From the sequence record OZ035744.1: DNA of 64,000 bases. The stretch is one strand, 5' to 3'. The notes under the pieces were generated by a model. It ran no database searches. It was not told the DNA's origin and was given only the letters and a program-made list of their open reading frames with translations. Below, one piece after another: positions 10,945-63,582 of the stretch. The first letter of the stretch is position 1, and each line of letters opens with the position of its first letter. Source of the DNA: Felixounavirus LF110P1. A program made the translations under genes and the position numbers.

Positions 10945-10995
10945 TTTTACTCCCTCTAAAATCATTAACCTCATACATTACTGCAAAAAATTATA

Positions 10996-11032
10996 AAAAG
11001 CAAGTTGACAATGCACTTGACAAGGTGTTAAT
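10996..11032 (+). promoter_or_regulatory. sigma70-like promoter with tandem TTGACA boxes
   Basis: TTGACAATGCACTTGACAAGGTG-TTAATC; near-identical element recurs at 55813. Confidence 0.45.
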
Positions 11033-11201
11033 CTTTGCGAAGTGGGTTTTTACTTAAAAGGTTACTTAACAGTTTAACTATACAGATACTTTAAATCTCT
11101 TAAAAGATTATTTAATAGCTTTTAAAAAGCTTTAAAGTATAACGTATAGAATACGTTAAGATAAAAGATTAAAACTTAATAGTTACTTAAAAGAGGCTTA
11201 C

Positions 11202-11624
11202 ATGCAGAAAATGTTTGTTCACCCAGACATAGCTGACTTTGTTAGAGCTTTGCAGAAGTTGGAAGAACTTGACATTGCTGCTCAACGGGAATATGCTCAC
11301 CATCACAGGAGAATGGTTGATATACAACATGAAATAGAGTTGTCTGAAAACTATGAAGATGACTTAAAATGCTCTGTATTTGAGCATATGAAAGATGTTG
11401 CTACAGCAAGACGTAAAGCTAAAGACACAGTTGCTTTACTAGATTCTCTTAAAAAGAGGTTGCAAAGTGGTACAGACCTGTGTAATCTAGCGTCACTGAT
11501 TAACGATGTTGAAACTTCTTGGGATAGGCACTATTATCCACGTTCTGAAAAGACACTTGACTTTTCTTCATCAGAAAACTTAAAATGTTCTAGAAAGAAA
11601 CTTAACCAACTGAGAGAGAAATAA
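11202..11624 (+). CDS. hypothetical protein
   Basis: 140 aa ORF, first gene of plus-strand operon. Confidence 0.45.
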   Translation: MQKMFVHPDIADFVRALQKLEELDIAAQREYAHHHRRMVDIQHEIELSENYEDDLKCSVFEHMKDVATARRKAKDTVALLDSLKKRLQSGTDLCNLASLINDVETSWDRHYYPRSEKTLDFSSSENLKCSRKKLNQLREK

Positions 11625-12499: not shown

Positions 12500-13243
12500 A
12501 TGAGTAATATTATCGCATTTACTGGAAAGGCACGCTCTGGAAAAGACACCTCATGTTCTATTGTGAAGAACATCTTAGAGGATGAGTACGGCTACAATGT
12601 TGCTGTAATGGCCTTTGCAGACAACCTTAAAATGTCTGCATCAAAGATATTTGACCTGACTTGGAATGACCTGTATGGTGAAACTAAAGAGACTCCACAG
12701 GTATTTGACTTATCATATCCTGAACTGATGTTTAAAGTTACGGAAGCTATGGAGTTCACCTTCAGAGATGAACGTTACCATATGGACTTCAAGCTTATGT
12801 CAGAGTTAACCGGACGATTAATCATGGAGCTTAAGAAGGTTGCTAAACCTACCCTATTAACACGTCTGGGATTTAGTAAAAAGTATAAATTCTCATCAAG
12901 ACAAATTCAACAGATTTGGGGTACTGAAGTTGTCCGTAAAGTAATGGGCGACAAGTTCTGGTCTAAAGACCTTGAAAAAAGAATGGTTAGATTCCATGAA
13001 ATGTGCTCACTTAGAAATCAATATGGTTTTGTCTTAATCAGTGATTTAAGATTTGACTCTGAAGCTGAATGGCTGAGTAGATTTGCACACCAAACTATTG
13101 AAGTAAAAAGAGACAATGTGGACAAAGTTTCATCACATGTTTCAGAAAATGGGATTTCTACAAAATATGAGCGTGACATTATTCATAATAATGGTACTCT
13201 TGCAGACCTTGAGAACAAGCTAAGAGCCATCATTAAAGTTTAA
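12500..13243 (+). CDS. deoxynucleoside monophosphate kinase
   Basis: N-terminal P-loop IAFTGKARSGKDT resembles T4 gp1 dNMP kinase N-terminus. Confidence 0.65.
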   Translation: MSNIIAFTGKARSGKDTSCSIVKNILEDEYGYNVAVMAFADNLKMSASKIFDLTWNDLYGETKETPQVFDLSYPELMFKVTEAMEFTFRDERYHMDFKLMSELTGRLIMELKKVAKPTLLTRLGFSKKYKFSSRQIQQIWGTEVVRKVMGDKFWSKDLEKRMVRFHEMCSLRNQYGFVLISDLRFDSEAEWLSRFAHQTIEVKRDNVDKVSSHVSENGISTKYERDIIHNNGTLADLENKLRAIIKV

Positions 13244-13251
13244 AAGAGAGA

Positions 13252-13452
13252 ATGAAGATGAGAGTAAAAGACAATTTTAAAGTTATTGACCACCGTTTAG
13301 TGGAACTCTCATCTCTTTCCAATGAGGTAATGATTGAACGTCTTAAGAGAGTTGAATCACGAAGGAAAGAGATTGCAGATGAAATTCATGAACTGGACAA
13401 GATTGAAAATGGATTGAAGGCAGAACTACAACGAAGAGGTGCTAATGTCTAA
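13252..13452 (+). CDS. hypothetical protein
   Basis: 66 aa coiled-coil-like ORF. Confidence 0.4.
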   Translation: MKMRVKDNFKVIDHRLVELSSLSNEVMIERLKRVESRRKEIADEIHELDKIENGLKAELQRRGANV

Positions 13453-15430
13453 AGGTCGTAAATTGAAAGAGGCTGGTCAGTTTGTTGGTCATTGCGCATG
13501 TCCACGTTGTGGTTCATCAGATGCTGGTTCAATCTATCATCATGACGATGATTCTTATTCAATGACTTGCTTTAGTTGTAACAAAGGTTTCCCAGAGTGG
13601 GATTTTGATAAAGGACAAATCGTGAGCACTTATTCTACTGGTTCAGACAATAAAAACCGTACTTTCCGTGGAATGGATTTAGACGATGTAAAAGAAAACC
13701 TAGAAGCAATGGACTTGAAAGATAGGAAGATTCCTGCAAAAGTCCTTGAACGCTTAGGTATCAAGGTTGACATTGACAGTGATGGTGAAATTGACGCGCA
13801 TTTCTATCCAACTTACAAACGTAATGAAGATGGTAAGCTAGAGCACGTTGGCTACCGTGTTCGTCACCGTTACCCAGAAGACCATCCAAAAGAACACCTA
13901 CGAGGTAAGTTAAAAGACTTTTCTGGTGGTGTTGGAGACATTAAAGGTGAACTGGCAATGTTCGGTTCATGGATTGCTCCAGAAGGTGGTAACCGTCTAT
14001 TCATCTGGGAAGGTGAGATGGAATGTGCGACAGCAATCTATATGACTTCTCTTGCGATTAAGGATAAATCTCGTCGTAAGAATTACTGTCACGTATCTGT
14101 TCCATCAGGTGCAAACATCAAGTCTATCAAAGATAACTATCAGTACATTACATCATTTGATGAGATTTACTTGTGCTTTGATAACGATGAAGCAGGTGCT
14201 AAAGCCACTAAAGAGGCTGCTGGTATCCTACCTATTGAGAAGGTTCGTTTATTCCAGTATCCAGAAGGCGTAAAAGACCTTAACGAGTGGTGGACAAAGT
14301 TCTATAAAGAGAAAGACACAGTTCTGGAAGGATTTAAGCAGCGTATCTACAATGCACCTCGTTACTGTCCTGCTGGTATCAAGAACTTTGCAGATGGTTT
14401 TGAGGCAATGAAGAATCGTGGTCAGATTCCATTGATTCCTTTCCCAGAATCTTTCGGAGATTTGAACAGGCTGACTTATGGTGGTTACGGTTTAGGTGAG
14501 ATTACAACTATTGCAGCACCATCTTCAGTAGGTAAGTCAGCTTACACTCGTGAGATGATTTATTCAGCTTGGAAAGAAACTGATTATAATATCGGTGTAA
14601 TTCCTGTAGAAGATACCTATGAAGAGTTGATGGAGATGCTCTGTGCAATCCACCTGAGCAAGCAGATTTCTGAGATTCCTTATGACGAACGTGATTGGGA
14701 TGAATTGAAGAAGGCACACGCAGAACTGTCTAAGGGTCGTCGTATCCACATCGTTGACCATCAAGGGGCAATTGACCAAGATAACTTGCTGGAGTTTGTT
14801 GACTATCTTGTTAACAGCTTAGACTGTAAGATTATTATTCTTGACCCTATTACGTTGGCTCTGTCACGTTCAGATACGGATGAAGAGGAAGTTTTATCTG
14901 AGCTATTGCGTCGTTGCAAACGCTACCAGTATGCACAGGTGAACGTCTGTCACGTTCGTAAGAGTGCAGGTGGTCAGAAGGCTAACTCCGAAGGTGGAGA
15001 TATCTCTGAAGAGGATATTAAAGGTTCTGGTGCGTATTTCCAGATTTCTATGAACAACATTCTATTAATGCGTAACAAGGTTGACCCAGACCCTGTTAAG
15101 AAAAACTTGACAAAAATCAAGTTAACTAAATGCCGTCGTCATGGTAAGTCAACAGGTATTGCTGGTCATACTTGGTACAATCCAGATACAGGACGTCTCA
15201 TTAAAGCCTCTGGTTGTGGAGTTGACATTGATGGTGCAGCAGAAAATATTCGCCAACAGTTTGGTATTGGTGAAGCTGAAGACCATTACGATGACTCTTT
15301 GCCACATTATGAGGATGAAGTGTTTGACCGTGAGACTGGTGAAGTCTATACTGAAGAGCAGCGTCAAAGCTCAACGATTCCACCTGTATTAAGTGAGGAT
15401 GCAGATGACTGCCCGTTCGAAACTGAGTGA
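13445..15430 (+). CDS. primase-helicase (T7 gp4-like)
   Basis: N-terminal zinc ribbon CPRCGSSD...CFSCNKG; Walker A GEITTIAAPSSVGKSAYT; DnaB-like helicase C-terminal half. Confidence 0.85.
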   Translation: MSKGRKLKEAGQFVGHCACPRCGSSDAGSIYHHDDDSYSMTCFSCNKGFPEWDFDKGQIVSTYSTGSDNKNRTFRGMDLDDVKENLEAMDLKDRKIPAKVLERLGIKVDIDSDGEIDAHFYPTYKRNEDGKLEHVGYRVRHRYPEDHPKEHLRGKLKDFSGGVGDIKGELAMFGSWIAPEGGNRLFIWEGEMECATAIYMTSLAIKDKSRRKNYCHVSVPSGANIKSIKDNYQYITSFDEIYLCFDNDEAGAKATKEAAGILPIEKVRLFQYPEGVKDLNEWWTKFYKEKDTVLEGFKQRIYNAPRYCPAGIKNFADGFEAMKNRGQIPLIPFPESFGDLNRLTYGGYGLGEITTIAAPSSVGKSAYTREMIYSAWKETDYNIGVIPVEDTYEELMEMLCAIHLSKQISEIPYDERDWDELKKAHAELSKGRRIHIVDHQGAIDQDNLLEFVDYLVNSLDCKIIILDPITLALSRSDTDEEEVLSELLRRCKRYQYAQVNVCHVRKSAGGQKANSEGGDISEEDIKGSGAYFQISMNNILLMRNKVDPDPVKKNLTKIKLTKCRRHGKSTGIAGHTWYNPDTGRLIKASGCGVDIDGAAENIRQQFGIGEAEDHYDDSLPHYEDEVFDRETGEVYTEEQRQSSTIPPVLSEDADDCPFETE

Positions 15431-46749: not shown

Positions 46750-48300
46750 TCCTTATACAATCTCTTTCCATCACCTTTCCAGAATCTTCCCACTGATTCG
46801 ATAGAACCTATCTCATACCTTAAAAGCAATAACTCTATAGTCTACGCTATAACCTCTTATCAAATCAACTTAAATATAAGCCCATAACCCGAAAGGGAAG
46901 GGCAACCGTTTAAACGCTCTATAAAGCTCTATAACAGCCTTATCAACCTAACTTAAGGGATTGCATTAACTCACCCTTAAAAGCCCTTTATAAAGCTTCT
47001 CAGAGACTTAAAAGAATCTTATAAGGGTGTAAGCTTTATTATCTCGTTAGCTATCTTGTGAACTACTAAACAAGCCCCTTGATAGTAACTGAAAAGTATG
47101 TTATAGGGGCTATAAAGTAGCTTAAAAGTTGCTTAAAAGTTACGTAAATGCTAGCCCCCTTAACATTCTCTTAACAATTTCTTAACAATCCCTACATAGT
47201 TATGCTTTTAAGGCACTTGTTAGCAACTTGTTAGCCCCTTGTTAAATCTCTGTTACAACCATGTAAAAGCCTTGTAAGAGTCTTTGACATAGCCTTAAAA
47301 GCTCCTGTAAAGCCCTATAAAGAGGTATCTGTACAGTTGGGGTGTAATTACTAGGAAGTGACTTAAAAGAGCTTATAAGGGGCTATAGAGAGCTTTTAAG
47401 AGGGCTATTTAGAGAATCACTAAGAAAGAGAGGGAACGATAAGAAAAGAGATAGTGACCATGTTAATAGCTTGTTAAAAAGATTAAATACTTGTTAGAAA
47501 CTTGTTAATTATCTTAACAAAATAACTCTTTAAAATTAACTTGTTAGCTCTTGTTAGTCATCTGTTAAGATTCTGTAAAGCTTACTCAGCACTTGTTAAG
47601 AGACTGTTACGCTCTTGTTAGTTCTGTTAAGAATCTATTAAGACCTTTGAAGAGTTGTTAAGAAGGTGTTAGAACTGTTAAGAGATTGTTAAGGATATTT
47701 TAAAATTTTGCAAAGTACTTGTAAGGGAGCTGTTAAGGGCTACCAAGCAGATATACATCTTCTACAGATATTTTTGAGTTCCTTCAAAGACCCTAAAAAA
47801 TGACTTGATAGTCCTATTTTATAAAAATTTTAAGATTCTGAATAATTACCTATACAGCCTTTTAAAAATACAGGTAATAACAGGCTTATAAGATACCTTG
47901 TTAGTACCGTGTTAGACCTTGTGAGATAAGGTCTGTGAAGATATTCCTGTTAAGTTTGTTAAAACAGTCTATATAGAGGCTTAGTAATACCTAGTGAACA
48001 CCTATAGAGGGTATCATAGCTTACCTAGAGATTAAGAGGTGTATAGGAGCTTCTAAGAGGGTGTAGAGGGATGGTTAAGGTGATTGTATAGGTTGTTAAG
48101 AAGGCTTGTTAGAAGAGTGTTTAGATGGCTATTTAGAAGGGCTATACAGAGGGCTATTGAGACCACTAGATAGTTACTAAGATACTATATAGTACTATAT
48201 AACTATATAGAGAGTAAGATTAAGAAGGTTGTTAAGAAGGATAGATATTTTGTTCACATATGATGGTGACCCAGAGGTTGGGACAACCGATAAAATTTTA
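46750..48300. repeat. ORF-free array of phased degenerate 8-mers (YTGTTARG, CTTAAAAG, CTATAAAG and reverse complements) at about 10-12 bp spacing
   Basis: dozens of copies, e.g. CTTGTTAG 47540, 47550; CTGTTAAG 47562; CTTGTTAAG 47592; CTTGTTAG 47614; CTGTTAAG 47624; inverted CTTAACA run 47160-47190; no ORF of 60 aa or more on either strand. Confidence 0.7.
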
Positions 48301-48342
48301 TAAAAGTAAAAAGCCCCCAATTAAGGAGGCTCTTAAGATATT

Positions 48343-55573: not shown

Positions 55574-55812
55574 AGATAATCCTCTTGTCTTCTGTAATTT
55601 TGAAAGAACAGGTACAGACCAATTTCAGAGGATGAATAGTAGATTAACTCTACCCTTTTTGATTCCTTACAGTGATTGGTATTCTTACCTTTCTTCGGTT
55701 TATTTGATTTTCTCATTAAGTCTCCTTTGTAGAACAAGGCAGACCTACAGCTTTAAGTAAGATGGTACAGTAATCCATACAACAAGTCAAGAACTATTGC
55801 AAGTTAAAAAAG

Positions 55813-55850
55813 TTGTTGACAAAGTACTTGACAAGGTGTAGGCTTATAAA
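55813..55850 (+). promoter_or_regulatory. sigma70-like promoter with tandem TTGACA boxes
   Basis: TTGACAAAGTACTTGACAAGGTG-TAGGCT; near-duplicate of the element at 10996; divergent intergenic region. Confidence 0.45.
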
Positions 55851-55965
55851 TACTTAGAAGATAACTTAAAAGGTTCCTCTAAAAAGGCTATTTAAACAGA
55901 TATCTTTCTGGATATCTATCTTTTATCTTAAAAGCCTTTTAAGAGGTCTTATAAGAGGCATACCA

Positions 55966-57999: not shown

Positions 58000-58076
58000 C
58001 TCTGTTTAGCTCAGCTTGGTAGAGCGTTCCGTTTGGGGCGGTAAGGCCGGAGGTTCAAGTCCTCCAACAGAGACCA
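58000..58076 (+). tRNA. tRNA-Pro (anticodon TGG), CCA encoded
   Basis: cloverleaf by hand: acceptor CTCTGTT/AACAGAG, T-arm GGAGG-TTCAAGT-CCTCC, anticodon loop TTTGGGG. Confidence 0.6.
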
Positions 58077-58083
58077 AATTAAT

Positions 58084-58158
58084 GTTCCAGTAGACAAAAT
58101 GGTAAAGTCACCACTCTTTCAAAGTGGATATCTGAGGGTTCAAATCCCTTCTGGAACG
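58084..58158 (+). tRNA. tRNA-Glu (anticodon TTC)
   Basis: acceptor GTTCCAG/CTGGAAC, anticodon stem CCACT/AGTGG, loop CTTTCAA, T-loop GGTTCAAATCC. Confidence 0.6.
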
Positions 58159-58165
58159 CCAGTTT

Positions 58166-58240
58166 TGACAGAAGACCAATTACAGCAAACTTAATCTACT
58201 CATCTGACACGAAATCGGACAAAGAAGATATTTGGTCTGG
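58166..58240 (+). repeat. inter-tRNA repeat copy 1 (CAGAAGACC-N3-TACAGCAA ... GGTCTGG)
   Basis: family of at least four copies between tRNAs (58166, 58335, 58725, 58811); possible fifth at about 61115. Confidence 0.5.
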
Positions 58241-58251
58241 TCATTGAGAAT

Positions 58252-58325
58252 TGCGGGTATAGAGAAAGGGCGTCTCACATGTCTCATTAGCATGGTATCG
58301 GCAGGTTCGACTCCTGCACCCGCCT
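58252..58325 (+). tRNA. tRNA-Met (anticodon CAT), initiator-like 1:72 mismatch
   Basis: T-arm GCAGG-TTCGACT-CCTGC, anticodon loop CTCATTA, D-stem GAGA/TCTC. Confidence 0.6.
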
Positions 58326-58334
58326 CCAATTTTG

Positions 58335-58392
58335 CAGAAGACCGTATTCAGCAACAAAATACTTTTTGCGGATAAAAGAAAAAACACGGTCT
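58335..58392 (+). repeat. inter-tRNA repeat copy 2
   Basis: GCAGAAGACCGTATTCAGCAA...CGGTCTGG. Confidence 0.5.
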
Positions 58393-58405
58393 GGCAATGT
58401 ATTAA

Positions 58406-58479
58406 GGTTAGGAAGCACATAAGGTATGTGCGGTCGCCTGTTAAGCGAATGGCACAGGGTTCGAATCCCTGACTAACCG
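58406..58479 (+). tRNA. tRNA-Asn (anticodon GTT)
   Basis: T-loop GGGTTCGAATCCC, anticodon loop CTGTTAA, acceptor GGTTAGG/ACTAACC. Confidence 0.6.
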
Positions 58480-58491
58480 CCAAATTTAAAT

Positions 58492-58576
58492 GTGTCGTTA
58501 TCCCGTAGATGGTAGCGGTGGGGACTGTAAATCCCTTGTCATTGAGACTCGGTAGGTTCGACTCCTACACGACACA
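58492..58576 (+). tRNA. tRNA-Tyr (anticodon GTA), long variable arm
   Basis: 85 nt; anticodon loop CTGTAAA; T-arm GTAGG-TTCGACT-CCTAC; acceptor GTGTCGT/ACGACAC. Confidence 0.6.
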
Positions 58577-58584
58577 CCAATAAA

Positions 58585-58659
58585 GGTTATGTAGTTTAAT
58601 TTGGTTAAAATACTCCCCTGTCACGGGAGATGATGAGGGTTCAAATCCCTTCGTAACCG
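58585..58659 (+). tRNA. tRNA-Asp (anticodon GTC)
   Basis: anticodon stem CTCCC/GGGAG, loop CTGTCAC; T-loop GGGTTCAAATCCC. Confidence 0.6.
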
Positions 58660-58724
58660 CCAATTTTGAGAGGGCTATTTAGCCCCTCCCTTAAAGAGTT
58701 CTTACGAGTATTCTTTAAAGGAGC

Positions 58725-58797
58725 AGAAGACCAAATACAGCAAGAATGTATGAAATTTCAAGCCAATTTAATTTTGAAAATTTAAAACTTGGTCTGG
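58725..58797 (+). repeat. inter-tRNA repeat copy 3
   Basis: CAGAAGACCAAATACAGCAA...TTGGTCTGG. Confidence 0.5.
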
Positions 58798-58810
58798 CTC
58801 AACAAATTTA

Positions 58811-58942
58811 CAGAAGACCGTTTACAGCAAAACTTAAACAATCTATTTCTCCGGTAAAGAAAAGGCGAAGGTTCGATTCCTTCACTCGGCAGATGTCGAG
58901 TTGGTGTAATGGTAGCACTTAAGATGATAAACAACGGTCTGG
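58811..58942 (+). repeat. inter-tRNA repeat copy 4 (extended, contains tRNA-like T-arm and D-arm fragments)
   Basis: CAGAAGACCGTTTACAGCAA ... GCGAAGGTTCGATTCCTTC ... GTTGGTGTAATGGTAGCAC ... CGGTCTGG. Confidence 0.45.
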
Positions 58943-58943
58943 T

Positions 58944-59086
58944 AATTATCTTTGTAGATAAGTTATTAAGCTTACCTGTGAGTATGCGACCACAAAGGGT
59001 GAAAGGGTAAATTCTAGATTTAAACCCAACAAGGCACATCGCTACAGACCTTAAGCAAGTCTGGGTAGCTTATCTACAAAGATAAT
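58944..59086 (+). ncRNA. candidate structured RNA: 17-bp perfect inverted repeat enclosing about 110 nt
   Basis: TTATCTTTGTAGATAAG (58944) pairs with CTTATCTACAAAGATAA (59069); no ORF; sits between tRNAs. Confidence 0.3.
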
Positions 59087-59091
59087 TTAAT

Positions 59092-59165
59092 GGAAGTGTA
59101 GCAGAATGGTGATGCGGCAGACTTTTAATCTGACAGGCGATGGGTTCGAATCCCTCCACTTCTAC
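59092..59165 (+). tRNA. tRNA-Lys (anticodon TTT)
   Basis: acceptor GGAAGTG/CACTTCT, loop CTTTTAA, T-loop GGGTTCGAATCCC; paralogue of tRNA at 60757. Confidence 0.55.
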
Positions 59166-59172
59166 CAATATG

Positions 59173-59246
59173 GTTCAGTCGCAGATAAGGTAATGCAGGG
59201 GTTTCATAAGCCCTATGAATGTGGGTTCGATTCCCATCTGAACCTC
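59173..59246 (+). tRNA. tRNA-Met or Ile2 (anticodon CAT)
   Basis: acceptor GGTTCAG/CTGAACC (perfect), loop TTCATAA, T-loop GGGTTCGATTCCC. Confidence 0.55.
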
Positions 59247-59251
59247 CAATT

Positions 59252-59323
59252 GTGGGTTAGCATAAATGGTAATGCAAACGGCTGATAACCGTTAGAAGAG
59301 GGTTCGATACCCTCACCTACAAC
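59252..59323 (+). tRNA. tRNA-Ile (anticodon GAT)
   Basis: anticodon stem AACGG/CCGTT, loop CTGATAA; T-arm GAGGG-TTCGATA-CCCTC. Confidence 0.6.
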
Positions 59324-59341
59324 CAATTTCAATAAAGTTGT

Positions 59342-59370
59342 TGACATTGAGATGTGACTACTTTATAGTA
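59342..59370 (+). promoter_or_regulatory. sigma70-like promoter inside tRNA cluster
   Basis: TTGACA - 17 nt - TATAGT. Confidence 0.5.
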
Positions 59371-59661
59371 GATAAAATAATTCATAATATGTATAATTCA
59401 AACACCAATACATGAGCGTTAGACGTAACACAATGTGGGGAAATTTGTTGTACATATTCTGAATAGTTTTCGTTGCGTAGCGTCTATTTTGCAAATTTAA
59501 AATAAATGCAAACGACAATGTTTTTCTGGCAGTAGCTTGATAGGCTAAACACCAGTGAGGTCTTCCAATCCCTCATCAAAGAATTTGGCGTACTAGCCCA
59601 CGGTATGATTAATAAAGTGGGCATCTTTAAGGGCTTTCTAAGAGAGTCTTTAAAGATTAAT

Positions 59662-59735
59662 GCACCCTTAGTTCAATTGGATAGAGCAACGGTCTTCTAA
59701 ATCGTTAGTTACAGGTTCGAATCCTGTAGGGTGTA
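59662..59735 (+). tRNA. tRNA-Arg (anticodon TCT)
   Basis: acceptor GCACCCT/AGGGTGT, D-arm GTTC...GAGC, loop CTTCTAA, T-loop AGGTTCGAATCCT. Confidence 0.6.
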
Positions 59736-59880
59736 CCAATTAGTTAGCAGATTACTTAGACGACCTTAGCGGGTCTTCCTGTAGGGAGGTGGTCTGTATC
59801 TCATGTTTTCCAGAACATGTAAATAATCTGAGAAGGGGCTTTACAGTGTTGAGATAATACGGTAAGCTTCGAATTATAGT

Positions 59881-59960
59881 ATGGGACGATGTTAAGACTC
59901 TAAGGCATGAGCAACGGCTTCCAACACCGTTTCAAAGGGGTTCAACTCCTCCGTCCCATG
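59881..59960 (+). tRNA. tRNA, isotype uncertain (possibly Trp, anticodon CCA), atypical extended D region
   Basis: perfect acceptor ATGGGAC/GTCCCAT, T-loop GGGTTCAACTCC, CCA encoded; D-arm does not fold canonically by hand. Confidence 0.4.
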
Positions 59961-59976
59961 CCAAAGATTGTTTCGG

Positions 59977-60060
59977 AGAGAGTGGCGGTCAACGGAGACC
60001 AACCAGCCTTGAAAACTGGTGCTGCTGGAAACGGTACGGGTTCGACTCCTGCACTCTCTG
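59977..60060 (+). tRNA. tRNA-Ser (anticodon TGA), long variable arm
   Basis: 84 nt; acceptor AGAGAGT/ACTCTCT; D-stem GGTC/GACC; loop CTTGAAA; 16-nt variable region; T-loop TTCGACT; CCA encoded. Confidence 0.5.
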
Positions 60061-60087
60061 CCAAAATGATTTTTTAAGGTGATGATT

Positions 60088-60429
60088 ATGAAGAAAGGTT
60101 CAGTAGGTGAAATTGCTACACAATTAGCTTTCCTCAAAAGAGGTTATGAAGTGTATTCACCAGCTACAGATAATGCAAAGTATGACTTTCTAGTTCACAA
60201 AGATGGTTTGATTGAGACTGTTGAGGTAAAATCAACCTCAGTCAAAAGAGGTGAACTTTGGAGAGTGCAACTGAAAAGAGTTCGTTCTAACAAGAATGAA
60301 AATAGAATAATGAATTTTGATAACTCTCAAGTTGATTACTTAGCTGTTTACATTGAACCACTTGATAAAGTCATCATCTACAAAGCTAAAGATATCAAGT
60401 CTAAGACTGAACTTAGCTTAAAGATTTAA
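60088..60429 (+). CDS. small protein embedded in tRNA cluster (possible PD-(D/E)xK-type nuclease)
   Basis: about 113 aa; D...E-x-K-like arrangement (DFLVHKDGLIETVEVK); RBS AAGGTGA. Confidence 0.3.
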   Translation: MKKGSVGEIATQLAFLKRGYEVYSPATDNAKYDFLVHKDGLIETVEVKSTSVKRGELWRVQLKRVRSNKNENRIMNFDNSQVDYLAVYIEPLDKVIIYKAKDIKSKTELSLKI

Positions 60430-60671
60430 TACTCCGTCCATGCTTGTTCGCATTGTCGGTTTATCCCTCGTGTTGTCGTACACACTGATAAAGCACCTAG
60501 TAGGTGTCACGGAGAAGAGATAGTATCAAGCTCTCCAAAGGTTCTAGTCACCGGATTAAACAAGACTATGCAAAGGCCTTCTTAGGTCTTTTTAGAGGGC
60601 TTCTAAGGTTATTACAGCTTGTTGTGGAACCTTGTTGCTTAGGTTCTTAGAAGTTCTCTAAAAAGATTTAA

Positions 60672-60746
60672 TGGGAGATTGACGGTAATTGGTAAACCTA
60701 CCATCCTTAGAAGTTGGTGTTTGAGGGTTCGAATCCCTTGTCTCCT
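60672..60746 (+). tRNA. tRNA, probably Leu (anticodon TAG), short variable arm
   Basis: acceptor GGGAGAT/GTCTCCT (with G-U), D-loop AATTGGTA, loop CTTAGAA, T-loop GGGTTCGAATCCC. Confidence 0.45.
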
Positions 60747-60756
60747 ACCAAATTAA

Positions 60757-60829
60757 TGCAGGTGTAGCAAAATGGTTATGCGGCTGACTCTTAATCAGTA
60801 AGACGATGGGTTCAATTCCCTCCACCTGT
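60757..60829 (+). tRNA. tRNA-Lys (anticodon CTT)
   Basis: anticodon stem GCTGA/TCAGT, loop CTCTTAA; T-loop GGGTTCAATTCCC. Confidence 0.55.
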
Positions 60830-60838
60830 ACCATACAT

Positions 60839-60911
60839 TGGGGATGTAGTTTACATGGTTAAAACATAAGTTTTGCAAACTTAAGTACAGGGTTCAATTC
60901 CCTGCTTCTCC
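60839..60911 (+). tRNA. tRNA-Ala (anticodon TGC)
   Basis: anticodon stem TAAGT/ACTTA, loop TTTGCAA; T-loop GGGTTCAATTCCC. Confidence 0.6.
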
Positions 60912-60920
60912 ACCAATTAG

Positions 60921-60992
60921 TGCATCCATAGTTTAAACGGGAAAATTACAGTCTTCCAAACTGAGGTTGAGGGTTCGATTCCCTCTGGATGC
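60921..60992 (+). tRNA. tRNA-Gly (anticodon TCC)
   Basis: perfect acceptor GCATCCA/TGGATGC; loop CTTCCAA; T-loop GGGTTCGATTCCC. Confidence 0.6.
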
Positions 60993-61002
60993 TCCAAATT
61001 AA

Positions 61003-61076
61003 TGCTGCTTTCGTATAATTGGCTATTACACATCCCTTGTAAGGATGGAAATGCGGGTTCGAGTCCTGTGAGCAGC
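61003..61076 (+). tRNA. tRNA-Thr (anticodon TGT)
   Basis: anticodon stem CATCC/GGATG, loop CTTGTAA; T-loop GGGTTCGAGTCC. Confidence 0.6.
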
Positions 61077-61080
61077 ACCA

Positions 61081-61172
61081 ATTCAGAGGTCAAGTGAAAG
61101 ACCGCTGGTGTCAACTGAAGACCGTAACAAATTCCACGGAGTTGAGTTAGCGGCACAACTTCAGACCTCTTT
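61081..61172 (+). other. intergenic inverted-repeat element (AGAGGTC ... GACCTCT) containing a GAAGACC motif
   Basis: CAGAGGTCAAGTGAAAGACCGCTGGTGTCAACTGAAGACCG...CAACTTCAGACCTCT; no ORF. Confidence 0.3.
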
Positions 61173-61174
61173 CA

Positions 61175-61246
61175 CACTCGCTTAGTTTATATGGTAAAAC
61201 ATCACCCTTACAAGATGAAGAAAAAGGTTCAAGTCCTTTAGTGAGT
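61175..61246 (+). tRNA. tRNA-Val (anticodon TAC)
   Basis: loop CTTACAA; T-arm AAAGG-TTCAAGT-CCTTT; acceptor ACTCGCT/AGTGAGT. Confidence 0.5.
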
Positions 61247-61250
61247 ACCA

Positions 61251-61325
61251 TGTTCCAGTATCCCAATTGGCAGAGGATGCAAGCTCAAACCTTGTATTAG
61301 TGACGGTTCGAATCCGTCTTGGAAC
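61251..61325 (+). tRNA. tRNA, probably Leu (anticodon CAA), short variable arm
   Basis: acceptor GTTCCAG/TTGGAAC; D-loop AATTGGCAGA; stem GCAAG/CTTGT, loop CTCAAAC; T-arm GACGG-TTCGAAT-CCGTC. Confidence 0.45.
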
Positions 61326-61333
61326 ACCAATTT

Positions 61334-61406
61334 TGCAGGATTAGTTCAAATGGATAGAGCAACAGTCTACGAAGCTGTTAATAGGGGTTCGAATCCCTTA
61401 TCCTGC
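61334..61406 (+). tRNA. tRNA-Arg (anticodon ACG)
   Basis: perfect acceptor GCAGGAT/ATCCTGC; loop CTACGAA; T-loop GGGTTCGAATCCC. Confidence 0.6.
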
Positions 61407-61428
61407 GCCAGATAAAAAAGGTGATACT

Positions 61429-61671
61429 ATGCAAACATTAACAGTAGTTGAACATGAAAACTGTGAGAGTATTGAGTTTGTCAGGGTCATTGGTGTTGAA
61501 CACCACATTTTCTTAAAAGTGGGATACTTATGTGACCCCGCTAGAGTAGAAAGATTTATACGTGATTGTTTTGGTGGTAGACATCTGAAGAGTGTTATTT
61601 TTGAGACAGTTTTACCAGAAGGTTTAGAAACGAATAATAACATTTACCTCCTTACGAGGATTAGACAATGA
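61429..61671 (+). CDS. hypothetical protein (within tRNA cluster)
   Basis: 80 aa ORF with AAAGGTGA RBS. Confidence 0.4.
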   Translation: MQTLTVVEHENCESIEFVRVIGVEHHIFLKVGYLCDPARVERFIRDCFGGRHLKSVIFETVLPEGLETNNNIYLLTRIRQ

Positions 61672-62225
61672 GATACTTAAAGTATGCTTCATGGATTTTC
61701 CTAGCTTTGCTAGAACCATTAGCAGCAACCTTAGCAGTTATCTTAGCACCTTTCGTAGTTCCATTTTACAGTGAGAAGAAAGGCCACTTACCTTTCGGAT
61801 TTAGATGGATGGAGACATATGACAACCCAATTGATGGTGACGAAGGTCATATCGAACGATGGGCTAAGATTAGAAAGATTGGTAAGCTGGGTGTCTACAT
61901 GCAGAGAGTCGGATGGCTCTGGAGAAACAAAGCTTATAACTTCTCTTACCATGTATTAGGAAGAGATGTAAAAGATGTTACTAAGTGGAAAGGTAATATC
62001 AACGTAAGTTCTGACCCTGAAGATAATCAGACAGGTTATCTCCTAATGTGGAACAGTAATGCTTGGGGATTATTCGCTTTTATCCCATCAATTAAAGTCT
62101 TTGGTAAACAGTTTTACTGGAGAATTTATATTGGATGGAAACTAAAAAGTGTTGTCCCAGAAGAAAGAGCATTCTCAAGGGAAAGAGTTATGTTGGCATT
62201 CTTTATTCATCCACTGAGAAAGTAA
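61668..62225 (+). CDS. hypothetical membrane-associated protein (within tRNA cluster)
   Basis: 185 aa; N-terminal hydrophobic helix (WIFLALLEPLAATLAVILAPFVVPF). Confidence 0.45.
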   Translation: MRYLKYASWIFLALLEPLAATLAVILAPFVVPFYSEKKGHLPFGFRWMETYDNPIDGDEGHIERWAKIRKIGKLGVYMQRVGWLWRNKAYNFSYHVLGRDVKDVTKWKGNINVSSDPEDNQTGYLLMWNSNAWGLFAFIPSIKVFGKQFYWRIYIGWKLKSVVPEERAFSRERVMLAFFIHPLRK

Positions 62226-62232
62226 AGATTTA

Positions 62233-62305
62233 AAGGGGATTAGTTTACAAGGTTAAAACCTCGGTCTTTGAAATCGAAGAAGTTGGTTCAATTCCAACAT
62301 CCCCC
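62233..62305 (+). tRNA. tRNA-Gln (anticodon TTG)
   Basis: D-stem GTTT/AAAC; anticodon stem TCGGT/ATCGA, loop CTTTGAA; T-arm GTTGG-TTCAATT-CCAAC. Confidence 0.55.
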
Positions 62306-62310
62306 GCCAA

Positions 62311-62386
62311 TGCTCCATTACTCCAATTGGCAGAGAGGCCAGACTTAAAATCTGTGTTATGTATCGGTTCGAATCCGATATGGAGT
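62311..62386 (+). tRNA. tRNA, probably Leu (anticodon TAA), short variable arm
   Basis: paralogue of tRNA at 61251 (same D-loop AATTGGCAGA); loop CTTAAAA; T-arm ATCGG-TTCGAAT-CCGAT. Confidence 0.45.
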
Positions 62387-62394
62387 ACCAAATT

Positions 62395-62467
62395 TAGCGG
62401 TATAGCATAACTGGCAATGCAACAGTCTCTGAAGCTGTCCTATTAAGGTTCAAATCCTTATGCCGCT
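62395..62467 (+). tRNA. tRNA-Gln (anticodon CTG)
   Basis: acceptor AGCGGTA/TGCCGCT; stem ACAGT/GCTGT, loop CTCTGAA; T-loop AGGTTCAAATCCT. Confidence 0.5.
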
Positions 62468-62502
62468 GCCACTTCTAAGGGTTCTTACGAGAGTCCTTAA
62501 AT

Positions 62503-62574
62503 GTGGCCTTATCATAAATGGTAATGACCCATGCTGTGAACATGGTCTATACGGGTTCAAATCCCGTAGGTCAC
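62503..62574 (+). tRNA. tRNA-His (anticodon GTG)
   Basis: anticodon stem CCATG/CATGG, loop CTGTGAA; T-arm ACGGG-TTCAAAT-CCCGT. Confidence 0.6.
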
Positions 62575-62582
62575 CCCAATTT

Positions 62583-62657
62583 ATAGTCCAAGTAGCTTAT
62601 ATGGTTAAAGCGCGTGTCTGAAAAACATGAGAAGAGGGTTCAAATCCCACTGGACTA
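62583..62657 (+). tRNA. tRNA-Phe (anticodon GAA)
   Basis: perfect acceptor TAGTCCA/TGGACTA; stem CGTGT/ACATG, loop CTGAAAA; T-loop GGGTTCAAATCCC. Confidence 0.55.
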
Positions 62658-62676
62658 CCAATTTCAAAGGTGCTTA

Positions 62677-63411
62677 ATGAAAGAGATGACAGAACAAGGT
62701 AAGGAGATTTTTAATCTCTTAAAAACCGGTAAAGGGTTTTCTAACCCACTTATTACTGGTGCAGCAGTTCTCGGTGGAACCGTAGCTGCTTCTACATCAC
62801 TTGTAAGCTCTATTAGTTCTGTAACAGACCCTACAATGCAGGAGAAACTTGTTGCTGCTGGACTTACAACAGTCCTTCTAAACAGCTTTACAACAAGCCT
62901 TACAAGCACTACAGCAACTACTAAGACCCTGACAGACTACGGTCAAAAATCTATTGATGAGTTTTCATCACGTATGCAGGTAGCAAAGGGATATTCCAAT
63001 GTTATGGGTGCAGCAGGAGAACAAGTTGGTTGTACACCGTTCAGTGGTATTATGGGTGTTGCTACAGAATATGGTCAAAAAGCTATTGATACGATTAACA
63101 GTACACTAGAGAGTGTTAACGATGTATTAAGTTACTTACAAGACGCTATTGACAAGGGTCTTGATACTGTTTCTGATTTAGCTAACCAAGCTGTCAGTAA
63201 GATTAATGAAGGTATCTCAAAGATTACAGCTTATGCAGATGAAGTTGTGCAGATGATTGAAGAAGAAGCTGCCCTTATTGCAGAGTACCTTAAAACGAAT
63301 ATCAATGGGTTCTTAGCAGGTATCTTACCAGACTGGTTTGATGATGCCTGTAAAACTGGTGTAATTGACACTATTGCAACACCAGAAATGAAGAACGCAT
63401 TACAGAAATAA
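62677..63411 (+). CDS. Ser/Thr-rich hypothetical protein
   Basis: track ORF 62614-63411 begins inside tRNA-Phe; more likely start is the internal ATG (MKEMTEQ) after AAAGGTG. Confidence 0.45.
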   Translation: MKEMTEQGKEIFNLLKTGKGFSNPLITGAAVLGGTVAASTSLVSSISSVTDPTMQEKLVAAGLTTVLLNSFTTSLTSTTATTKTLTDYGQKSIDEFSSRMQVAKGYSNVMGAAGEQVGCTPFSGIMGVATEYGQKAIDTINSTLESVNDVLSYLQDAIDKGLDTVSDLANQAVSKINEGISKITAYADEVVQMIEEEAALIAEYLKTNINGFLAGILPDWFDDACKTGVIDTIATPEMKNALQK

Positions 63412-63430
63412 TGGAAGATTAACCCTAAAA

Positions 63431-63505
63431 GGTAAGGGAGCAGTTTGCTAAACTGCCAGTAGCTGAGAAATCGGTGTGCCAGTTCAAGTCTGGTATCTTC
63501 CTCCA
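63431..63505 (+). other. tRNA-like element (T-arm plus CCA end, non-canonical 5' half)
   Basis: T-arm GCCAG-TTCAAGT-CTGGT and 3' ATCTTCC-T-CCA, but upstream forms a 7-bp hairpin GCAGTTT/AAACTGC instead of D and anticodon arms. Confidence 0.3.
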
Positions 63506-63509
63506 ATTT

Positions 63510-63582
63510 GAATCCGTGACAGAAATGGCTATGTGCCTGTCTGCAAAACAGGTTTATAAGGGTTCGAGTCCCTTCGGATTCT
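63510..63582 (+). tRNA. tRNA-Cys (anticodon GCA)
   Basis: perfect acceptor GAATCCG/CGGATTC; stem CCTGT/ACAGG, loop CTGCAAA; T-loop GGGTTCGAGTCCC. Confidence 0.6.

Follow-up and report, generated by a model that had tools for sequence, protein, structure and literature searches.

A gene-free tract of helically phased words in Felixounavirus LF110P1 as the probable genome-end region of a short-terminal-repeat phage

What occupies 1668 bp without genes (46675-48342) in the genome of Felixounavirus LF110P1 (OZ035744.1), of which we analysed a 64,000-nucleotide stretch, hereafter the window? An earlier note made from the letters alone had described the tract as lacking any ORF of 60 aa or more, lying between the terminator of a plus-strand gene block and the end of a minus-strand gene block, and built almost entirely of short related words recurring at about one helical turn, an arrangement that it took as typical of cooperative protein binding, be it at an origin of replication, at a centromere for partition or in a region controlling packaging or injection. 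The coding claim holds, as the longest ORFs across the six frames are 35, 31, 37 and 41 aa, and terminators were found on both sides (46713-46732 and, on the minus strand, 48334-48309). The tract lacks ORFs because TAA or TAG is contained in nearly every word on both strands and, since a unit of 11 bp is not divisible by 3, the stops rotate through all frames.

Two families of 8-bp words are present in the tract, class-1 (TGTTA[AG]-type) and class-2 (CT[TGA][TA][TA]AAG). The motif CTNNNNAG has 62 copies in 46700-48340, compared with 12.2 +/- 3.3 (maximum 23) in 1000 dinucleotide-preserving shuffles, and its density is 21-24 per 500 bp in the tract vs about 4.6-5 in the remaining window. On the plus strand, CTTGTTAG is found eight times in the tract and 0 times in the other 62 kb. 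Neighboring CTNNNNAG pairs at 10-12 bp number 25, against 0.26 in the shuffles and 4.7 +/- 2.1 (maximum 12 in 2000 placements) when the same number of words is placed at random, so the reported recurrence every 10-12 bp passed its significance check. Distances between words peak at 10-12, 21-22, 31-36 and 42-44 bp, and GTTA[AG] words have a modal spacing of 11 bp. By a parameter-free measure, AA-dinucleotide power at periods of 10-12 bp as a ratio to the mean, the 600-bp segments starting at 46901-47201 rank top across the 64 kb. The orientation switches are likewise where they had been described, with TTAACA at 47160, 47171 and 47182, TGTTA[AG] at 47218, 47229 and 47240 and a direct run at 47542-47687. 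The words are strongly enriched, but "almost entirely" was an overstatement: strict CTNNNNAG words cover only about 31% of tract positions, and the arrays including their fixed spacers roughly half. From the sequence pattern, cooperative protein binding to the phased words is plausible.

The identity of the tract comes from its relatives. It matches 256 phage records, almost all from Felixounavirus or other Ounavirinae, and its central 591-bp segment matches 252, with 244 of them covering at least 80% of the query. The counterpart in Felix O1 is NC_005282 12771-13339, upstream of ORF24, which places the tract at the ORF23/ORF24 junction. In MW481326, a 581-bp "short direct terminal repeat" is annotated at both ends of the record, 457 bp past the last plus-strand gene and 631 bp ahead of the first minus-strand gene. 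Exact terminal duplicates of 581, 591 and 651 bp are present in the GenBank records of Pr103Blw, ZX4221 and NBEco005, with junctions identical to the window, and further records (ECP2307, pEP20, GE_vB_7A, ECOH1 and Erwinia phage Prophecy) have their first or last base at that position. These matches establish, at the level of sequence comparison, that the central 591 bp (47154-47744) are the orthologue of the exact short direct terminal repeat (DTR) found at both virion DNA ends in the genus. The physical ends of this phage are therefore expected at about 47154 (left) and about 47744 (right). The same sequence at both genome ends is seen in the orthologues and extends to this phage by about 90% identity; only one copy lies in the window because the assembly was not opened at the physical ends. 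The features, from left to right, are:

46685-46700: second GC hairpin, upstream of the plus-strand terminator.
46713-46737, plus strand: Rho-independent terminator ending the plus-strand gene block (Felix O1 ORF23 side), a hairpin at 46713-46732 with a T run from a terminator scan; the site is also annotated in ASO1A and Moogle.
46738-47153, plus strand: left flank, delimited by word counts by domain; in packaged DNA it would lie just inside the right-end DTR copy.
47152-47165, plus strand: left DTR boundary, with the cut placed between 47153 (..AAATGCTA) and 47154 (GCCCCCTTAACA..); the junction is identical in the three records with exact terminal repeats.
47154-47744, plus strand: the 591-bp sequence orthologous to the Felixounavirus short DTR, from terminal duplicates and annotation in relatives.
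47158-47190, minus strand: three reverse class-1 words (TCTTAACAAT) set 11 bp apart, the run beginning 5 nt inward from the left end.
47215-47260, plus strand: three forward class-1 words (CTTGTTAG, CTTGTTAG, CTTGTTAA) and the variant CTGTTAC, at 11-bp spacing.
47262-47415, plus strand: central class-2 block of the DTR (CTTGTAAG, CTTAAAAG, CTGTAAAG, CTATAAAG, CTTATAAG, CTATAGAG, CTTTTAAG, CTATTTAG).
47460-47737, plus strand: about 15 class-1 words with the consensus cTTGTTA[AG]g, most often 11 bp apart, in a long forward array that fills the right half of the DTR.
47731-47757, plus strand: right DTR boundary, with the cut placed between 47744 (..GGGCTACC) and 47745 (AAGCAGATATACA..).
47745-48300, plus strand: right flank; in packaged DNA it would follow the left-end DTR copy for about 550 bp.
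48309-48334, minus strand: Rho-independent terminator ending the minus-strand gene block (Felix O1 ORF24 side), from the terminator scan; the site is also annotated in ASO1A and Moogle.

The repeat itself is already known, having been mapped in close relatives. PhageTerm analyses of relatives gave DTR sizes of 581 bp (PMC8303462) and 613 bp (PMC6454146). In UAB_Phi87, Bal31 shortening of two SpeI fragments together with drop-offs in run-off sequencing defined a 608-bp DTR, which is printed as starting with AACATTTTCTTAACAA and ending with GTTAAGGGCTACCAA (PMC4837284). The run-off start corresponds to AACATT (window 47162), 8 nt inward of the left end based on duplicates, and the run-off sequence stops at ..GGGCTACCAA, a right-end difference from the duplicates of 2 nt; the published DTR thus fits the window boundaries within 9 nt. 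Both boundary sequences, ..TTACGTAAA(T/A)GCTA followed across the left cut by GCCCCCTTAACA.. and ..GTTAAGGGCTACC followed across the right cut by AAGCAGATATACA.., recur in Felix O1, Moogle and SUSP2 as well as in 17 further relatives, and related boundary boxes occur in two Erwinia phages. One report conflicts with this picture, as PhageTerm assigned SEP1, a Felixounavirus, heterogeneous termini and headful packaging of the pac type. Bardina et al. state that their tree of large terminases (TerL) agrees with packaging types (PMC4837284); in this phage the terminase gene is expected to lie outside the window. Taken together, we put the probability that the tract is the genome-end (concatemer-junction), packaging-end region of a Felix O1-like myophage with T7-type DTRs at roughly 85%. 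Of the functions offered by the earlier note, packaging was the right one, both physical ends falling inside the tract, whereas origin and partition found no support.

A replication origin would also explain dense phased direct repeats next to an AT-rich segment, if an initiator bound the words cooperatively and melted the AT-rich 47780-47880, and the tract coincides with a local extreme of cumulative GC skew. T7 moreover has secondary origins near its genome ends. However, the skew extreme is a maximum that simply tracks the switch of coding strand, and the DnaA box TTATCCACA is absent from 46675-48342 at up to 1 mismatch. A Pfam scan of the 10 flanking ORFs returned no domains, hence no Rep/initiator, ParA, ParB, ParR or recognisable DNA-binding domain. 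The words are 8 bp long on an 11-bp pitch, vs the 17-22 bp iterons typical of origins, and genes on either side are transcribed toward the ends and converge on the tract, while the early replication genes point away from each other at the 96/97 junction, close to window position 11000. That the tract is or contains an iteron origin is thus improbable. The same Pfam scan bears on a partition centromere (parS/parC-like) bound by ParB or ParR, which phased short repeats with orientation switches resemble formally. Felix O1 is presumably strictly lytic. It was treated as a lytic phage by Whichard et al. (PMC3185647), who name no partition genes. With no par domains in the flanking ORFs and the center of the tract being the terminal repeat of linear virion DNA, the centromere is close to refuted.

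To what extent the words themselves are under selection is a separate question from the identity of the repeat. The region is present and conserved in 20 relatives, the comparison that had been proposed for it, at 0.83 / 0.89 / 0.935 along the tract vs 0.88-0.90 in the flanking coding sequences. The lowest value belongs to the left flank, which carries almost only class-2 words (CTTAAAAG, CTATAAAG, CTTATAAG; nine copies) and a variable patch at 46770-46800, and the highest to the right flank, the most conserved part of the tract, which holds the AT-rich segment, class-1 words and GGCTAT..AGAGG and CTATATAG words. The right boundary reaches 0.98 (30-bp window from 47730). Word positions are conserved above spacers (0.918 vs 0.880, Mann-Whitney p = 3e-5), and the CT....AG shell is kept in 83% of aligned cells vs 70% for controls. 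Among approximately 40 distinct indels of at least 5 nt, 10 are 11 nt, 11 are 21-24 nt and five are 32-35 nt long, and the count of TGTTA[AG] stays at 17-22 although DTR length spans 570-638 bp. The layout and the boundary boxes extend to Mooglevirus (Moogle), Suspvirus (SUSP2) and two Erwinia phages, with the right-boundary box in the form AAG[CT]AGATATACA in Moogle, SUSP2, Prophecy and Ep030, and 47638-47757 is the only stretch still alignable to Erwinia (Kolesnikvirus-type) phages. The distant relatives come from blastn in "distant" mode; the 13 IMG/VR loci with a flanking protein are all close relatives at 86-93% identity.

These values also weigh on the view that the words have no sequence-specific function and that the region merely tolerates tandem-repeat slippage or unequal recombination, with only the boundary boxes mattering. 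Replication slippage between tandem units predicts indel quanta of 11 nt without any selection for phase, and DTR length does vary among relatives (569-651 bp). On the other hand, divergence in the tract does not exceed that of coding DNA, words are conserved above spacers, and genera with unalignable flanks still share the GTTAAG core, the layout of orientations and the number of words, all of which makes a neutral origin of the arrays quite improbable.

Inverted repeats connect the two DTR edges. The reverse run at 47158-47190 pairs with 47673-47694 as a 22-nt inverted repeat of 91% complementarity, TAGCCCCCTTAACA at the left edge is the outer half of an inverted repeat spanning the two boundaries, and TGTTAAGGGCTA (47731-47742) mirrors that arm next to the box AAGCAGATATACA (47745-47757) directly outside the right end. 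An outside-inward local alignment of the DTR ends scored 36 vs a shuffle maximum of 30; it matched words and not the boundary arms, and the boundary inverted repeat therefore rests on inspection and conservation. DNA folding around the left boundary was not compelling (z = -1.7).

The high conservation of the right flank, above that of its coding neighbors, could alternatively reflect RNA function if the tract were transcribed as a non-coding RNA, e.g., a Shine-Dalgarno-like decoy (AAGAGG, AAGAAGG). Several such purine words lie in the right flank, and the leaders of the mRNAs at 11050-11200 and 55860-55960 contain similar ones. Class-2 words also occur away from the tract, in leaders of early genes and in terminator loops; that they are not exclusive to the ends is a point against the packaging role. 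An Rfam scan at a permissive E-value returned no family, its best hit (E = 0.22) being on the terminator, and folding of right-flank RNA was not exceptional (z = -1.1 on the plus strand and -2.3 on the minus strand). A sigma-70 scan gave 12 weak sites where 6.6 +/- 3.0 were expected, and inside the tract no site exceeded a score of 9 of 12. Our literature search found no papers on a Felixounavirus transcriptome, and the main text of the PhageMaP study gives no intergenic result for Felixounavirus Bas63. With no convincing promoter and inward-facing terminators on both sides, we regard a non-coding RNA as highly improbable.

The arrays could also act after packaging, as a pause signal in DNA ejection, of which the first-step transfer of T5 is an example, or as sites for a protein that protects the ends against RecBCD or restriction. 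The arrays fill roughly 1 kb at either extremity of virion DNA, the part that would enter the cell first, and the most conserved segment, the right flank, lies just inside the left end. Yet the first kilobase lacks the genes that a first-step transfer must express, and no promoter-like site in the tract scores above 9 of 12. Such a role is improbable, although it is compatible with one in packaging.

For the genome-end reading, the T7-type scheme for short-DTR phages suggests by analogy how the tract might work. Replication would generate concatemers with one repeat per junction, where the terminase complex would recognise the junction and cut at two fixed boundaries, and DNA synthesis would duplicate the repeat to leave a copy at each end of the packaged genome. 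After infection, the two copies would let genomes recombine or anneal into concatemers. The words probably serve as phased binding sites for a packaging recognition protein: with one word of either family per 11-bp unit, or about one helical turn, they would offer putative sites on the same DNA face. The large terminase is the only terminase identified in UAB_Phi87 and Felix O1 (PMC4837284); the putative word binder could be the equivalent of a small terminase or a different protein that bends DNA and so wraps the junction. The reverse words at the left DTR edge and the forward array at the right, together with TAGCCC(CC)TTAACA and TGTTAAGGGCTA, would give the cut sites mirror symmetry, and the differing word content of the flanks may allow the machinery to distinguish left from right.

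A more ambitious reading joins all of these elements. In it, about 58 phased words over 1.6 kb would be the loading platform of the putative word-binding protein, the Ounavirinae equivalent of a small terminase, which would polymerise along one DNA face and wrap the junction; mirror words at the DTR edges would place two staggered cuts 591 bp apart; and class-2 words in two early divergent promoter leaders (approximately 11050-11200 and 55860-55960) would couple the shut-off of early genes to the start of packaging. As a whole, we consider this combination unlikely.

Most deposited Felixounavirus genomes, including OZ035744.1, were opened arbitrarily, and their annotations either show nothing in the tract or place spurious "hypothetical proteins" there. 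Read as the DTR, the tract would provide the true genome ends, the true length (about 590 bp more) and a rational coordinate at which to start the record. True ends matter for synthetic rebooting and for the engineering of Felix O1-type therapeutic or diagnostic phages. The papers that we found on the Felixounavirus repeat give its length or sequence, and the word arrays, phasing, flanks and boundary symmetry are undescribed there. New relative to these papers are the two word families, the conservation of words above spacers, the 11/22/33-nt indel quanta, the inverted edge words, the cross-genus layout and the likeness to T7. With hundreds of natural variants, the Ounavirinae should be a good comparative system for the role of such arrays and in the search for the recognition subunit apparently missing from these phages.

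Compared with known systems, the closest match is with the DTRs of Felixounavirus itself (UAB_Phi87, 608 bp; Ro111lw, 613 bp; Pr103Blw, 581 bp), whose sequence is orthologous and about 90% identical to that of the window, with the same boundary sequences, the same location between the convergent ORF23- and ORF24-side blocks and the same size class; nothing essential differs. Iteron origins and partition centromeres are likewise arrays of short direct repeats with helical phasing, but the tract has no adjacent initiator or par genes and no DnaA box, transcription converges on it, its unit is 11 bp and the segment is a virion DNA terminus.

T7 is the mechanistic paradigm for packaging with short DTRs. 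In general terms, one repeat per concatemer junction is duplicated at packaging (PMC10438801). The 160-bp terminal repetition of T7 and the tract share exact short DTRs at fixed ends, similar short A-rich words (CCTAAAG, CTTAAAG and CATAAAG in T7; CTTAAAAG, CTATAAAG and CTGTAAAG here) and the combination of words inside the repeat with a regular array in flanking DNA; at the T7 left end, C[CAT]TAAAG words lie within the repeat and a 13-bp-spaced array just inside. In contrast, T7 is an unrelated podovirus with a repeat about 3.7 times shorter and an array pitch of 13 vs 11 bp, and its left array is followed by early promoters, whereas both flanks here close with inward-facing terminators. The similarity of the words may be convergence because no homology is demonstrable. 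To our knowledge, the role of short-repeat arrays at T7-type ends, including those of T7, has never been established. At the R sites of lambda cosB with IHF and at SPP1 pacL/pacR, short sites about one helical turn apart on bent or wrapped DNA hold a small-terminase oligomer beside the cut, a concept that, as an analogy, would suit the tract. Those systems have 2-4 repeats in <200 bp and cos or headful packaging, while the tract has about 58 words over 1.6 kb and two cut sites. Relative to the short-repeat arrays at T7-type ends, those of the Ounavirinae are longer, comprise two word classes and bear clear signs of selection in word over spacer conservation, quantised indels and a layout shared across genera.

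The gene-free tract at 46675-48342 of the window is a concatemer-junction and genome-end region, with a short direct terminal repeat (DTR), in relatives found at both ends of the virion DNA, at 47154-47744. This conclusion follows from an annotated repeat, shared exact junctions and Bal31/run-off data in relatives. In phage Pr103Blw (MW481326) the two ends of the record both carry the annotation of a 581-bp "short direct terminal repeat", starting 457 bp past the last plus-strand gene and ending 631 bp ahead of the first minus-strand gene, so the physical ends, a PhageTerm result of its authors (PMC8303462), fall within this same gene-free tract. Exact terminal duplicates are present in three independently deposited genomes, Pr103Blw (581 bp), ZX4221 (591 bp) and NBEco005 (651 bp), all with the junctions ..TTACGTAAATGCTA/GCCCCCTTAACA.. 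and ..GTTAAGGGCTACC/AAGCAGATATACA.., and the window carries the same two. Several other records start or stop at the same DTR end point, including an Erwinia phage record starting at the homologous AGCCACTTTTACATTTCGTTAACAAC. UAB_Phi87 provides an experimentally mapped DTR with a sequence in print since 2016: two SpeI fragments were shortened by Bal31 and run-off sequencing gave a 608-bp repeat, printed as AACATTTTCTTAACAA to GTTAAGGGCTACCAA (PMC4837284), the counterpart of window 47162-47746. Ro111lw has a DTR of 613 bp (PMC6454146). One paper called SEP1, a Felixounavirus, headful-packaging, which we treat as a conflicting software call. Packaging, one of the options in the earlier note, was thus the right one, as the centre of the tract is the DTR and both physical ends lie inside the tract.

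Features of the tract, with conservation among 20 sequences (Felixounavirus, Moogle and SUSP2)
46713-46732, plus strand: inward-facing terminator left of the tract (terminator scan)
416 bp left of 47154: left flank of the DTR; conservation 0.83
47153/47154: left DTR junction, as in three relatives
47154-47744: DTR, from terminal duplicates in relatives; conservation 0.89
47160, 47171 and 47182, minus strand: three reverse class 1 words, the first 5 nt inside the left end
47744/47745: right DTR junction, as in three relatives
556 bp right of 47744: right flank of the DTR; conservation 0.935
48334-48309, minus strand: inward-facing terminator right of the tract (terminator scan)
Two flanking coding sequences: conservation 0.88-0.90

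The tract is the ORF23/ORF24 convergent junction of the Felix O1 map, which consists of four "transcriptons" (Whichard et al. 2010, PMC3185647). The window agrees with this map in GC content (~39%), strand layout and a cluster of 26 tRNA genes (58000-63585, all plus strand, following closely downstream of the divergent promoter region at 55.8 kb). The Felix O1 genome has the end of ORF24 at 13928 and the DTR equivalent at 12771-13339 (569 bp). With the tract as a 1.64-kb query, matches of 80-93% identity came from 256 phage records, of which 204 covered at least 80% of the query; nearly all were Felixounavirus or other Ounavirinae from Escherichia, Salmonella, Shigella and Citrobacter, and distant-mode blastn added Suspvirus, Mooglevirus and Erwinia phages. 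A full Felix O1-type terminal tract (84% identity) also occupies 135382-137076 of GU169904.1, the 147-kb record of Staphylococcus phage SA1, and its presence under a Staphylococcus label suggests that the record is chimeric or Felixounavirus-contaminated.

What the tract is was already established for close relatives, and GenBank has the DTR annotated in at least one record. The two word families, 11-bp phasing, quantised indels, boundary symmetry, conserved flanks, subfamily-wide conservation and the T7-array parallel are without description in PMC3185647, PMC8303462, PMC6454146 and PMC4837284. What the analysis mainly offers for this much-used group of phages is a correct annotation and a definition of the genome ends.

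The earlier note had described an ORF-free tract made almost entirely of periodic, orientation-switching words. Indeed, no ORF within 46675-48342 is longer than 41 aa. The shell common to the words, CTNNNNAG, occurs 62 times against 12.2 ± 3.3 (maximum 23) in 1000 dinucleotide-preserving shuffles, and 25 adjacent pairs lie 10-12 bp apart, against 0.26 in shuffles and 4.7 ± 2.1 when the same number of words is placed randomly. Pair distances peak at 10-12, 21-22, 31-36 and 42-44 bp, and CTTGTTAG, with 8 copies in the tract, is absent elsewhere on that strand of the 64 kb. The orientation switches listed are exact; the words are real, but their extent was overstated, as strict words cover ~31% of positions. 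ORFs are lacking as a consequence of the words, which bring stops (TAA or TAG) to both strands, and of the 11-bp unit, which shifts these stops through all three frames. Several relatives' records (e.g. MK482688-90, MH586731, NC_027360, PV798375) annotate 2-3 "hypothetical proteins" in the tract, which are probably spurious, as the tract is a terminal-repeat region and has no conserved ORF >41 aa; Danish wastewater phage records mark short "repeat_region" features instead. Across the window, AA-dinucleotide periodicity at 10-12 bp has its strongest single peak in the 600-bp segments that start at 45201-45701; this peak (45201-46300) overlaps a 176-aa ORF (45499-46029) and lies outside the ORF-free tract.

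The words form two classes, class 1 (cTTGTTA[AG]g, n=34, modal spacing 11 bp) and class 2 (CT[TGA][TA][TA]AAG, n=24). The left flank holds essentially class 2 alone, the DTR both, and the right flank class 1, GGCTAT..AGAGG and CTATATAG. Class 1 is asymmetric with structured orientation: apart from the three reverse copies, all but one of those in the DTR are forward, filling its right half. A 22-nt inverted repeat (91% complementary) pairs 47158-47179 with 47673-47694, and TAGCCCCCTTAACA (47152-47165) is mirrored by TGTTAAGGGCTA (47731-47742); thus, reading inward from either physical end gives a GC-rich box, then TTAACA words. Two conserved non-word elements, both containing GTGACC and retained in Moogle and SUSP2, lie at 47416-47462 (purine-rich, flanked by the inverted repeat ATCACTA..TAGTGAC, then CATG) and 48240-48280 (ATATTTTGTTCACATATGATGGTGACCCA, close to the right-hand terminator).

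Class 2 words also occur elsewhere in the window. The divergent promoter regions at 10990-11205 and 55800-55965 (Felix O1 96/97 and 40/41 junctions) have in common a double -35-like element, almost identical in the two (AAGTTGACAATGCACTTGACAAGGTGT and GTTGTTGACAAAGTACTTGACAAGGTGT), and their leaders are dense with class 2 words (ACTTAAAAGG, CTTTTAAGAGG, CTTATAAGAGG), the last word overlapping the first gene's Shine-Dalgarno sequence. Intergenic GC hairpins at 42314-42350 and 43920-43975 (GGGGCTTAAAAG...TAAGCCCC and GGGGCTTATAAGTCTGTAAAGTAAGCCCC, then AGATAAAGAGCTTT) carry them in their loops; these correspond to direct repeats of 57 bp that Felix O1 is reported to have between genes 15/16 and 19/20. 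At 41451-41548, 41913-42018 and 44831-44942 lie further duplicated intergenic segments, short and related to these.

The tract is under constraint, and the constraint is on the words: conservation is higher at word positions (0.918) than in spacers (0.880; p = 3e-5), with the profile rising from ~0.81 immediately outside a word to 0.88-0.96 within it. Among ~40 distinct indels of ≥5 nt, 10 are of 11 nt, 11 of 21-24 nt and 5 of 32-35 nt, and at DTR lengths of 569-651 bp the number of TGTTA[AG] copies is steadily 17-22. Phages with flanks that can no longer be aligned (Moogle, SUSP2 and two Erwinia phages) have kept the layout as well as the core word GTTAAG and two boxes, ATTTTGCAAAG and, immediately beyond the right boundary, AAG[CT]AGATATACA. 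Neutral slippage would account for the 11-nt indel quanta, but it leaves unexplained both the greater conservation of words than spacers and the persistence of layout across genera.

The tract is unlikely to be a replication origin, an option of the earlier note, though it may serve as one in a secondary role; against this option stand the lack of a DnaA box in the tract, neighbours without an initiator-like gene and transcription converging on it. The partition option of the earlier note is not supported, with no par domains found nearby and no partition genes reported for Felix O1 (PMC3185647). A non-coding RNA would be a further reading, but the tract has no Rfam match and no convincing promoter, and its predicted folds are unremarkable.

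By analogy with short-DTR phages such as T7, each concatemer junction would hold one repeat copy, terminase would cut two fixed boundaries and synthesis would duplicate the repeat (general statement in PMC10438801), after which the repeats would mediate concatemer formation. The words may be same-face, helically phased sites to which a recognition or bending protein binds, and the edge mirror symmetry would suit two staggered cuts by one recognition geometry; only the large terminase is identified in these phages (PMC4837284). Ejection control or end protection by the words would be a more speculative role, compatible with packaging. The tract is well suited to comparative work on what short-repeat arrays do at T7-type ends. 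The T7 left end (NC_001604) has the same design, with C[CAT]TAAAG words inside its 160-bp repeat and, immediately interior to that repeat, an array with a regular 13-bp spacing.
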